Below, piece by piece: positions 16,415 through 18,404 of a stretch of 64,000 nt of DNA. Source of the DNA: Escherichia coli (GTDB taxonomy: Bacteria > Pseudomonadota > Gammaproteobacteria > Enterobacterales > Enterobacteriaceae); the NCBI RefSeq assembly GCF_030013205.1, contig NZ_CP122648.1. One strand, written 5' to 3'. The translations under genes and the position numbers were made by a program. Below the pieces are notes generated by a model. The model was given only the letters and a program-made list of their open reading frames with translations, made no database searches and was not told where the DNA came from. Positions within the stretch are counted from its first letter, which is position 1. Each line of letters opens with the position of its first letter.

Positions 16415-16837
16415 GTGGCAAAAGTTTTTACACAAGAAGAGCGGGAAAAAATTAAAGGACAGGTTGTTGAACTCGTACGCCAGAGTGGGCGTGAGACGTT
16501 ACGGCAACTGGAAGTCAAGACAGGTGCGACAAGATATCTGATGAGCGTTCTCGCAAGAGAGCTGGTTGCCAGCGGCGATGTATACAACTCTGGTTACGGG
16601 TTATTCCCGTCTGAACAGGCGCGTAAGGACTGGCAAAATGCCCGTAAAAAGCTCTCAAGGGCAAAGCTGAAGAAACCATCTGCGGTTGATCCGGACCTTA
16701 TCTGGTCATTACCTGACGGAGAAATACGTCGCTACGACAGGCGTCAGAACATAATCTGTCGCGAGTGCCGGAAGAGTGAAGTTATGCAGCGCATATTGTC
16801 GTTTTATCAGGGTGATGTTCGGTATTTATTGAAGTGA
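16415..16837 (+). CDS. hypothetical protein (140 aa) in the replication module
   Basis: ORF track; follows the replication gene; possible HTH segment. Confidence 0.4.
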   Translation: MAKVFTQEEREKIKGQVVELVRQSGRETLRQLEVKTGATRYLMSVLARELVASGDVYNSGYGLFPSEQARKDWQNARKKLSRAKLKKPSAVDPDLIWSLPDGEIRRYDRRQNIICRECRKSEVMQRILSFYQGDVRYLLK

Positions 16838-16983
16838 CGAGATTAAAGTGCATTAGTTCAGATGCAAATTGACATTTTGTGGCACAGGGTAGAGCTAGCG
16901 TGGTTGTCCGCTTTGTGCCAACAGCGGACATTATAGATGGTATATGTAGAAAGTGAACATGCGTAGATTGTATGATTTAGCCG

Positions 16984-17793
16984 TCACTTAATTATTGGAT
17001 AACTCACACAAGTATGACCGTTGCTTATCGCATACATTTGGTTTCCCTTAAGATTTACAAATGGAAATGTCGTATACTCATAATTTATAGAGGTCATATT
17101 AAATGTAAGGAATTTATCTTCAAGTTCTAATTTTGTAGAGTGGGCAGGGTATGTTCCTTCATTTTTCATTGTGATAATAAAACCGATAGGAAAAAAATGT
17201 AAAGCACAAATAAATGCCACATGTCCTTCGTTCATAAATGCTACACTTTGAGCGGATATGTGCATTCTGTGTGGGTAAAACCAGTAGTAAATATCATGAG
17301 TTTCCTCAAAACTTGAATTTTTACCCAAAACATAATCCTTTAAAGGTGTATAGAAGGGGCTATCTACGGGTTCTTTTTTACAATCTTCAACTGAAGTTGC
17401 TGATAGCACGTGCCCAATCATAGCCTTAGTGAAAGATATGCTATCAAAAGGTATTCTAATGAATGGATATACATTCATACCATTCATATATCGACTTAAC
17501 TGTTCTTTAAAGGACTTTGTTACATTTTCAATTGCAACATCGAGCCCACCTAATACCTTATTGTTACAGTGGCTGCAAATGGTTCTGAAATAAGAGCCAT
17601 TTTTAGCATTTAATGGTTTAACTGGTTCCTGAATACCAAAAAATTCGCTAACTGTTTTCTGCAAAACAGGGCCTAAGGTTATGGCGCACTTTGGAGGAAC
17701 ATGATCTTTTGTGAGCAAGCCATATTTCCCACAAATATTGCAATAACCTTCAGTAATGCCATTGTGCTTCCATCGTTCACTAATTTTCGTCAT
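16984..17793 (-). CDS. HNH (His-Me finger) nuclease-domain protein with an uncharacterised C-terminal domain
   Basis: 269-aa ORF; CxxC (18/21), DH-x-P (30-33), CxxC-N (73-77); GAGGG SD; AT-rich and antisense to the flanking rightward genes. Confidence 0.6.
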   Translation of the reverse strand: MTKISERWKHNGITEGYCNICGKYGLLTKDHVPPKCAITLGPVLQKTVSEFFGIQEPVKPLNAKNGSYFRTICSHCNNKVLGGLDVAIENVTKSFKEQLSRYMNGMNVYPFIRIPFDSISFTKAMIGHVLSATSVEDCKKEPVDSPFYTPLKDYVLGKNSSFEETHDIYYWFYPHRMHISAQSVAFMNEGHVAFICALHFFPIGFIITMKNEGTYPAHSTKLELEDKFLTFNMTSINYEYTTFPFVNLKGNQMYAISNGHTCVSYPIIK

Positions 17794-18116
17794 TTTTATT
17801 CCCTCAGTAGCATAAGCTATCTATACGTTTTTTAATCCTATCAAAGATACAACTTAACGTCAGGAAAATGATAGTGTTTATCTAAGTAATACAATTAACT
17901 TCAACGCGTGACAGTCTGCTTTTCGCTAAAAGCGGACTAGAAGGTTAGCTTGCGTCGGACTTGGCGTATTTAAAGAAGTGCTGGTGGTGACTGGTTGTTG
18001 TGTTCCATTTCTACAGAACAAAATCACAGAAACTATACCCAATAGTTGTATTGAATCACTGACGAGACAGCCTCATATTTATCAGGACTGGTGTACGTCC
18101 AATACAGGAGGTTGTG

Positions 18117-18206
18117 GTGCTGGTTCTCAAATGTGCGCTGGCTATTGCTGCTGTAATGGCAATTTATTGCCTTGCTGTTGTTCTTATGGATCGCCTTTCT
18201 GATTGA
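18117..18206 (+). CDS. putative small hydrophobic peptide (29 aa, MLVLKCALAIAAVMAIYCLAVVLMDRLSD; GTG start)
   Basis: Perfect AGGAGG SD at 18106-18111, 5 nt before the GTG at 18117; single predicted transmembrane helix; followed by a long hairpin and an intrinsic terminator. Confidence 0.3.
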   Translation: MLVLKCALAIAAVMAIYCLAVVLMDRLSD

Positions 18207-18245
18207 TTTTATATTGGCGAGGTGACGTGAGTTAAGTAGAATTGC

Positions 18246-18332
18246 TGCGGGTGCTTGAGGCTATCTTCCTCTGATGTGTCAGGCATCCTCAACGCACCCG
18301 CACTTAACCCGCTTCGGCGGGTTTTGTTTTTT
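18246..18332 (+). terminator. long imperfect hairpin followed by an intrinsic terminator
   Basis: tgcgggtgcttgagg...cctcaacgcacccgca (18246-18302), then cccgcttcggcggg plus a T-run (18306-18332). Confidence 0.5.
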
Positions 18333-18404
18333 CCTGGCATTCTGGTTTACAATTCGCACGCCAGCCTGAACAACTGGCACCTGCTGCGCCAGCAGAGACA
18401 ACCG

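Follow-up and report, generated by a model that had tools for sequence, protein, structure and literature searches.

Among the described systems that come closest to the gene considered here is EcoKMcrA, a modification-dependent type IV restriction enzyme of 277 amino acids (aa) from the cryptic prophage e14 (PDB 6ghc), a solitary protein that consists of an HNH nuclease domain and one other domain. Septu PtuB is also an HNH nuclease, employed as a defence effector in partnership with the PtuA ATPase, and we take it to be one of the HNH effectors of the AAA15/21-ATPase defence systems. The Pfam models for such effectors include HNH_5 (PF14279) (PMC11464382), which the classification of His-Me finger nucleases places in Groups 1 and 8, the latter without an assigned function (PMC5714182), and HNH_5 endonucleases have been reported to be abundant among the functions of integron cassettes (PMC7370490). 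Here we analyse a gene for a protein of 269 aa in a stretch of 64,000 nucleotides of Escherichia coli DNA (contig NZ_CP122648.1 of assembly GCF_030013205.1), which we call the window. The gene belongs to a lambdoid prophage and lies on the minus strand, from an ATG at 17793 to a stop codon at 16984-16986 (16984..17793 in the list of open reading frames, ORFs). Like EcoKMcrA, its product is prophage-borne and solitary and joins an HNH domain to one other domain; in contrast to EcoKMcrA, where the HNH domain is C-terminal, it has the HNH domain at the N-terminus, so that the order of the domains is reversed, the HNH domain is split by an insertion of ~26 residues, and the non-catalytic domain has no detectable similarity to that of EcoKMcrA. 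Our analysis leads us to lean towards the view that this is a solitary nuclease immunity gene and, on the basis of guilt by association, we regard a function in defence or in competition between mobile elements as fairly probable. That the protein recognises foreign DNA directly, rather than being activated by a trigger to cause abortive infection, is a more tentative and somewhat doubtful proposal.

We are confident, judging from sequence comparison, that the N-terminal ~100 residues form a real HNH nuclease module, stabilised by zinc and split by an insertion that is specific to the family. Residues 10-36 (17686..17766, minus strand) hold the first half of the His-Me finger, with a CxxC pair (C18, C21) and strand beta-1 ending in D30-H31, placed by invariant columns and a predicted strand at 24-32. 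The second half comprises residues 63-104 (17482..17607, minus strand), in which strand beta-2 (67-73) is followed by a second CxxC pair (C73, C76), a helix with N77, then D85 and a long helix. Between these two strands of the beta-beta-alpha-Me motif lies the insertion (residues 37-62; 17608..17685, minus strand), which contains a short helix at 42-51 and is 25-28 residues long in most of the 64 family members. D30-H31 would provide a putative metal ligand and the general base, and N77 is a second putative metal ligand. An AlphaFold2 model built on the family alignment (pLDDT 84.3, pTM 0.87) has, in this order, the first CxxC, strand 24-32 ending in D30-H31, a segment of lower confidence with helix 42-51, strand 67-73, and a helix (74-80) starting from C73/C76/N77; over residues 31-70 the pLDDT is 61-70. 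As modelled, this is the order of a beta-beta-alpha-Me fold with two zinc-binding CxxC pairs. Comparison of the model with AFDB50 by Foldseek gave 131 matches at E<=1e-3, and the full-length relatives (260-290 aa, TM 0.65-0.79, probability 1.0), which come from Leptospira, Nostoc, Blautia, Stenotrophomonas and others, are labelled 'HNH endonuclease 5 domain-containing protein', so that in structure the protein does resemble proteins that are recognised as HNH.

For the intact sequence the result is negative: the window protein has no significant match to any HNH profile in Pfam, and at E<=1e-3 HNH_5 matches only one of 30 remote members and none of 34 close members as intact sequences. Likewise, when an annotated collection was searched with remote members, the top 120 matches carried no precomputed Pfam domains. 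In one relative (P0188) the alignment with HNH_5 is confined to the second half of the model (positions 33-53, in the equivalent region), and this half-match, together with the segment of 25-28 residues between the strands, raised the suspicion that the segment masks the motif. When residues 10-36 were joined in silico to residues 63-104 in 33 diverse members, 24 of the resulting mini-domains matched HNH_5 at E<=1e-3 and all 33 did so at E<=0.1, while 27 of the 33 matched Endonuclease_7 at E<=0.1. For the mini-domain of the window protein the match to HNH_5 has E=0.0015 and covers positions 1-43 of the 56 of the model, that is, both halves; Endonuclease_7 follows at 0.021 and HNH at 0.87. A search of 177,635 PDB sequences with the excised profile returned three matches only, all of them His-Me nucleases (4h9d, the HNH domain of IscB, and Hpy99I), and the full-length profile (A1) returned from PDB sequences only one noise match, dethiobiotin synthetase at E=0.73. 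The first of the three, the GVE2 HNH endonuclease 4h9d (E=0.021), aligns motif by motif, through the CxxC, 'LTMDH', and 'CseCNsk' with 'CKECNNR'. HNH_5 and 4h9d thus have the CxxC ... DH ... CxxC-N motif and the beta-beta-alpha-Me order in common with the window protein, although 4h9d, with 112 aa, lacks the C-terminal domain of ~165 residues. By these comparisons the catalytic module is nearest to HNH_5 within the His-Me/HNH superfamily, and we attribute the failure of the intact protein to reach significance in Pfam to the insertion. A preliminary description of the locus had proposed an N-terminal HNH or His-Me finger and called its signature clear. The finger itself is borne out by the Foldseek relatives, by the PDB matches of the excised profile and by HNH_5 after excision. 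As for its clarity, the residues in question (C18/C21; D30-H31-V32-P33; C73-S-H-C76-N77) are present, and the four cysteines, H31, P33 and N77 among them are invariant in the family alignment, but no sequence profile detects the motif in the intact protein.

The family to which the protein belongs is large. An exhaustive profile search found 1,798 clusters at 50% identity with E<=1e-3, of which 361 have E<=1e-30, and nearly all of the 150 clusters listed match over most of their length and have about 255-300 aa. Within the Gammaproteobacteria there are 93 clusters at 90% identity, constant in length and labelled only 'chaperonin', 'metal-binding protein' or 'hypothetical'. The first of these labels, attached to many homologues in NCBI and UniProt, is backed by nothing in the sequence or the model and looks like a propagated misannotation. 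The preliminary description had reckoned with the possibility that the gene is not conserved beyond this prophage, and these numbers dispose of that worry. In an alignment of 30 members, each only 20-32% identical to the query (A2), the residues C18, C21, H31, P33, P34, C73, C76, N77, D85, G127, H128, W171, P202 and P244 are invariant and D30 is conserved in at least 90%; judged from this alignment, the conservation of the motif is far beyond chance. The window product itself is identical to WP_000161640.1, which RefSeq labels 'hypothetical protein'. Intact, it has as its sole direct family match PHROG 21495 (function not assigned), over its full length, and no match in PADLOC, NCBIfam, Pfam or PDB sequences.

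The remainder of the protein, residues 105-269 (16987..17481, minus strand), is an alpha/beta domain of ~165 residues, predicted with high confidence in the AlphaFold2 model and containing the invariant residues G127-H128, W171, P202 and P244. It is rich in aromatic residues, with F+W+Y making up 16.4% against 5-8% in most of the neighbouring proteins, and it has neither a Pfam match in any of the 64 members nor a significant structural relative in the PDB, both of which agree with the preliminary description of an aromatic-rich part that matches nothing known. Within AFDB50 this domain occurs only in the same two-domain architecture. We infer that it determines the specificity of the nuclease or regulates it. 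The conservation of its residues across phyla would suit the recognition of a fixed chemical ligand.

How might such a protein be used? Part of the answer lies in its neighbourhoods. We compared 64 loci: the window copy, 46 loci from IMG/VR, and 17 taken from annotated records or targeted look-ups. At <70% identity their HNH-like proteins fall into 23 lineages, and every ORF within 2.5 kb was assigned to a cluster. A given neighbour family is found in 3 of the 23 lineages at most, and the recurrent families belong to the backbone of P2/P4. It follows that there is no conserved methyltransferase, antitoxin, ATPase or immunity partner, and the cassette in which the gene travels leaves no room for a protein partner. 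A nuclease domain without a cognate methyltransferase, one of the features by which type IV enzymes are known, is what we observe here. Since methyltransferase, immunity protein and antitoxin are all missing, the discrimination between self and non-self would have to lie in the protein itself. The same result bears on the idea of an orphan type II restriction endonuclease, one that has lost its methyltransferase or relies on one encoded at another place. HNH restriction enzymes do exist, and Hpy99I is among the three PDB sequence matches; yet no adjacent methyltransferase is conserved in the 23 lineages, and the identical gene is found in many hosts and plasmids without a companion, which would be lethal in the case of an unprotected sequence-specific enzyme, and we find this explanation barely credible.

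Two arrangements with a partner were considered and rejected. In the case of a Septu-like two-gene system, no adjacent AAA15/21 ATPase is present either in the clustering of neighbours from the 23 lineages or in the annotated contexts. The PtuB model does give marginal matches to one of ten remote members (E=0.005) and to one of ten excised mini-domains (E=0.002), but the window protein has no PtuB match and its C-terminal domain differs from that of PtuB. For a toxin-antitoxin pair there is no antitoxin partner, no room for one in the cassette and no RNA element, the search of Rfam with positions 16600-18700 having found no RNA family and hence no evidence of an antisense-RNA antitoxin.

The positions of the homologues are themselves suggestive of defence. 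In Serratia fonticola (P0084) the gene lies between int and psu of a P4-like satellite, and in three P2-like prophage lineages it lies directly beside the portal gene (locus L056 is among those next to the portal); at locus L060 the terminase gpP and the portal gpQ come first, then the gene and a 179-aa ORF, and finally the gpA nickase. The psu-int interval of P4 and the gpA-gpQ interval of P2 are anti-phage hotspots as defined by Rousset et al. 2022 (PMC9122126). Homologues thus occupy hotspot positions, though the window copy does not, as it sits in the slot between DUF977 and hok of a lambdoid prophage, a type of site outside that study (PMC9122126). At the hotspots the homologues share genomic positions with single-gene cargo such as P2 old, tin and fun and DUF4238, to whose proteins the family has no sequence or domain relationship. 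The 179-aa protein of L060 (7344-7883, minus strand; PHROG 28788, E=4e-90), in the same gpQ-gpA hotspot, may be another uncharacterised cargo gene.

Outside these hotspots, Serratia marcescens and others have the gene at the gpD/gpU end of P2-like prophages, a filamentous prophage of Vibrio has it at its cargo end, and in Pseudomonas it is part of a serine-recombinase island. In Plesiomonas, Shedu SduA (PADLOC E=4e-164) lies within ~6.5 kb and a protein with the Pfam label HEPN_AbiU2 ~4.6 kb away; in Cupriavidus, the gene lies 58 bp downstream of a Mrr-like gene, with a full type IV enzyme of Mrr type (E=3e-102) encoded nearby; and in another betaproteobacterium, in the same moaC-integrase island, AbiTii, PDC-S02 and PDC-S15 are present. 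These defence locations are strong guilt by association, which is evidence of position and not of enrichment or phenotype. Two of the settings merit a separate remark. In Vibrio cyclitrophicus (L002) the genes on either side of the homologue encode a DUF2726 protein and a 362-aa protein without a Pfam or PADLOC match (7177-7818, 8942-10030), at the distal end of an inovirus-like prophage with Zot, a secretin and a gpA-type replication protein, which suggests a small cargo cluster on a filamentous phage. The islands of Cupriavidus necator (L019) and of the other betaproteobacterium (L020) are bounded by integrases and occupy the same site next to moaC; one contains Mrr-type enzymes, IS66 and a resolvase, the other AbiTii, PDC-S02, PDC-S15 (FRG domain) and Peptidase_M78, and the HNH-like gene is the sole element that they have in common. 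The moaC-adjacent site looks like a betaproteobacterial defence hotspot.

Within E. coli, there is little doubt that the gene is mobile accessory cargo. Junctions found by BLASTN against five other loci (L014, L012, L013, L017, L018) delimit a swappable unit of ~1 kb at 16934..17924 of the window. Up to 16933 and from 17925 onwards the backbone is shared with a sister prophage (L014), which between these points has a RelA/SpoT-domain gene instead (2539-3564 of L014, encoding 341 aa). Other sister prophages, with L015 (1929-2872 and 3733-4218) among those compared, have QueH or DUF4406 in the slot that matches window 16934-17924 and Doc-family toxin genes nearby. Since the sister prophages hold different cargo at the same place, 16934-17924 is one alternative occupant of a variable slot, and this DUF977-to-hok slot, bordered in the window by the replication-side genes on one side and the hok/DUF968/RusA/Q genes on the other, serves Rac/Qin-like lambdoid prophages as a hotspot for cargo. 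Of 5,426 complete E. coli genomes, 133 carry the gene intact, 61 of them in the same lambdoid context; in E. coli K_EC180 the locus is 100% identical, in a lambdoid prophage whose integration site adjoins a tRNA-Ser gene next to mtfA.

The cassette recurs in other contexts with about 80 bp downstream and 90-140 bp upstream of the gene. The P2-like phage pro147 has a copy, 94.5% identical in DNA, that lies antisense between its tail-fibre and sheath genes, at what is presumably the P2 Z/fun locus. On conjugative IncF plasmids it is 99-100% identical and lies beside IS26 and mph(A)/erm(B) regions. A protein that is 100% identical is encoded on at least 48 plasmids, mostly conjugative: the three that we inspected, all IncF-type, are from Shigella sonnei, Klebsiella and E. 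coli, and other records also include S. flexneri, S. boydii and Enterobacter. On the inspected plasmids (gene at 6001-6810 of L017, 6001-6810 of L018 and 7071-7880 of L013) the gene is ~350 bp from a copy of IS26 and near DUF2254, betT and the macrolide-resistance regions with mph(A)/erm(B). Short pieces of lambdoid backbone remain at the ends of the plasmid copy (~20 bp, window 16914-16933, and 13 bp, window 17925-17937), a hint that it came from a prophage.

The composition of the gene also sets it apart from its surroundings. Its GC content is 0.349 and its GC3 0.296, against 0.47-0.54 and 0.48-0.55 for five flanking genes, and it runs antisense to flanking genes that are all on the plus strand, namely DUF977 (16415-16837), DUF968 (18685-19740), RusA and Q. 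A Shine-Dalgarno-like GAGGG, read from the sequence, lies at 17801..17805 on the minus strand, 7 nt 5' of the ATG. The preliminary description had reported the ORF with its motif residues, the Shine-Dalgarno sequence, the AT-richness and the antisense orientation, all of which we find as claimed, and had seen in the last two the marks of a moron or accessory cargo gene; the BLASTN junctions, the variable slot and the alternative cargo in sister prophages support a self-contained accessory cassette.

That description had also held a free-standing homing endonuclease to be an equally valid reading, and here our results disagree. Like the gene in the window, free-standing homing endonucleases (I-HmuI and the T4 Mob enzymes are examples) have an HNH module and are encoded by small AT-rich stand-alone genes in intergenic regions of phages, and a selfish gene whose nuclease cuts a cognate site in alleles that lack the gene, and so allows it to spread, could well move as a unit of ~1 kb. 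For such a gene one would look for a conserved insertion site with homologous flanks. What we observe instead is that the DNA common to the contexts is limited to the ~1 kb cassette, the flanking DNA being unrelated among lambdoid, P2-like, P4-like, inovirus, plasmid and chromosomal-island settings, and that the slot in sister prophages holds other cargo rather than an uninterrupted target. Moreover, only 3 of 50,697 phage records have a homologue, none of them virulent; none of the 64 members has a NUMOD, IENR1, AP2 or HTH module, the DNA-binding modules typical of homing enzymes, in Pfam; the gene is antisense to the surrounding operon; and the family resides in multi-cargo hotspots, plasmids and chromosomal defence islands. 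We therefore regard homing, or another selfish spread of this kind, as very unlikely.

A further alternative is an accessory nuclease with a role other than defence, such as DNA processing, recombination, resolution of branched DNA in the manner of endonuclease VII, degradation of host DNA, or stabilisation of the plasmid or prophage by addiction. That Endonuclease_7 is the second-best Pfam match of the excised mini-domain (27 of 33 at E<=0.1), that the gene is carried on conjugative IncF plasmids beside IS26 and resistance genes, and that the hotspots also harbour non-defence cargo (PMC9122126) would all fit such a role. However, the prophage already encodes RusA (19741-20106) and other proteins of the HNH superfamily, the antisense orientation speaks against a function in the lytic cycle, the gene keeps no constant position with respect to any phage module, the cassette is too small for a partner of the size of an antitoxin, and in three chromosomal islands the gene lies among recognised defence genes. 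All in all we consider a role outside defence improbable.

We are thus left with the question of how a solitary nuclease could provide immunity. We propose that the gene is a self-contained moron that encodes a stand-alone DNA endonuclease, and that this nuclease would most likely protect the lysogen, and hence the carrier element, against other phages or mobile DNA. In the lysogen the gene would be transcribed from its own promoter, presumably located in the upstream non-coding part of the cassette (17794..17924, minus strand), which accompanies the gene in its lambdoid, plasmid and P2-like phage settings. The HNH module would cut DNA, and self would be told from non-self within the protein, presumably by the C-terminal domain and possibly with the help of the insertion. 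That the intact gene is found in 133 genomes and the identical protein on at least 48 plasmids indicates that it is not constitutively toxic. The logic that we slightly favour over abortive infection resembles that of type IV restriction, with EcoKMcrA as the model and the order of the domains reversed: the C-terminal domain would read a feature absent from the DNA of the host and the carrier, either a modified base or a phage-specific form of DNA, and would license cleavage. We favour this logic because the architecture of EcoKMcrA provides a precedent, because the C-terminal domain is conserved across phyla, and because in two lineages the gene lies by Mrr-type enzymes.

An abortive-infection nuclease would draw on the same genomic evidence, that of a solitary gene in hotspots and defence islands. 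In this case the HNH module would be held inactive by the C-terminal domain, by the 26-residue insertion, or by both, until a phage protein or some other cue of infection unleashes indiscriminate degradation of DNA and the cell dies or is arrested. The insertion lies within the catalytic motif and has a low pLDDT in the model (61-70), as would befit an element with a regulatory or autoinhibitory function, and the RelA/SpoT-domain protein that a sister prophage has in the same lambdoid slot points in the same direction, if one is prepared to speculate, as we do here, that it has a defence role as a fused toxin-sensor or in a toxin-antitoxin system. Against this, C-terminal residues that are invariant across very distant phyla are less expected of a domain that senses phage proteins, which evolve fast; the 23 lineages show neither an antitoxin nor another partner gene, and nothing seen here speaks directly for toxicity. 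We judge abortive infection unlikely, if still to be taken seriously, and return to immunity by direct recognition of foreign DNA.

Several observations weigh against that reading, and to some extent against defence in general. The step that resembles type IV restriction is an analogy, and no known reader fold was detected: the C-terminal domain is unlike SRA, EVE, YTH, the McrA N-domain or any other solved fold, so that the modified-base reader expected of a type IV enzyme (SRA/PUA-like, EVE, YTH, or the N-domain of McrA or McrB) is not seen. An hhalign comparison of the family profile with EcoKMcrA was not significant, with 17 columns at a probability of 1.9% and only the first CxxC aligned. 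The family-wide conservation of the C-terminal domain fits either a fixed chemical ligand or merely a structural core. A consensus scan found no convincing sigma-70 promoter in the upstream region, and the scan for promoters and terminators found no consensus terminator in the cassette. None of the 5,027 models of PADLOC-DB v2.0.0 matches the window protein, even at E<=1; the preliminary description, which counted an anti-phage effector among its readings, had proposed this search. The literature offered no experimental phenotype data for the family, and the hotspots hold non-defence cargo as well, including partition systems and toxins (PMC9122126).

As far as novelty is concerned, we found no publication that describes the family. 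A relative may nevertheless have been tested in a recent screen, for DefensePredictor had among its tested candidates an HNH1 (WP_252151320.1, 301 aa). WP_000161640 is absent from the searchable literature and from the supplements examined of Rousset 2022 and DefensePredictor, and the family is not named in the text or the examined supplements of PMC9122126. The defence models used were those of PADLOC-DB v2.0.0, and the defence databases covered were no newer than 2023. What we have is a candidate for a nuclease-based single-gene defence, set apart by the unusual split in its catalytic motif and by a second domain that fits no known class. It is quite conceivable, though we would hesitate to assert it, that the protein founds, as its first example in E. 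coli, a large and so far unrecognised family (about 1,800 clusters at 50% identity, from many bacterial phyla) of immune nucleases that act as single proteins, composed of a split HNH module and a sensor or specificity domain of new fold. Existing tools for finding defence genes would have overlooked the family because its insertion masks the HNH module. Its vehicles would be the hotspots of P2/P4, lambdoid prophages, arrays like those of integrons, and the epidemic IncF resistance plasmids of Shigella, Klebsiella and E. coli, and it would possess a new way of sensing foreign DNA or infection, a possibility that we hold no more firmly.

If the defence reading is true, the bacterial immune repertoire gains a nuclease system that consists of one compact gene product (269 aa) and brings with it a new recognition domain. 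It would mean as well that a conserved insertion can mask a common catalytic fold from profile-based annotation of defence genes, which suggests that further effectors with split motifs have been overlooked. The identical protein on conjugative macrolide-resistance IncF plasmids of Shigella sonnei, Klebsiella and E. coli could alter the phage susceptibility of epidemic strains, with relevance for phage therapy, and could influence the competition between plasmids and phages.

We close with some observations on the surroundings of the cassette. A hairpin at 16906-16929 with a stem of 7-8 bp (GTCCGCT...AGCGGAC) lies exactly at the left boundary that the copies in lambdoid, P2-like and plasmid settings have in common; a T-run is absent, and in folding energy the hairpin does no better than shuffled sequence (z = -1.2). 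The right flank (17925-18331) is a locus of hok/mok/sok type. Relative to L014, ~332 bp that include the hokD coding sequence (L014 4153-4484; coding sequence 4299-4454) are gone from this flank, with the junction near 18268-18271. The flank has no intact Hok ORF in any frame, no hok is annotated in the K_EC180 locus, and Rfam finds no hok/sok RNA; it looks like a hok remnant from which the toxin has been deleted. The DUF968 (YdfU-like) protein, encoded at 18685-19740 on the plus strand, ends in a zinc HNH motif, CMTCG...DDPHHII...CRKCHNELH, and DUF968 constitutes Group 7 of the His-Me finger classification (PMC5714182), so that a second protein of the His-Me superfamily is encoded, in sense orientation, ~900 bp away from the first. 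In the identical prophage of K_EC180, RefSeq annotates an HNH endonuclease next to the terminase (L001 19245-19595).

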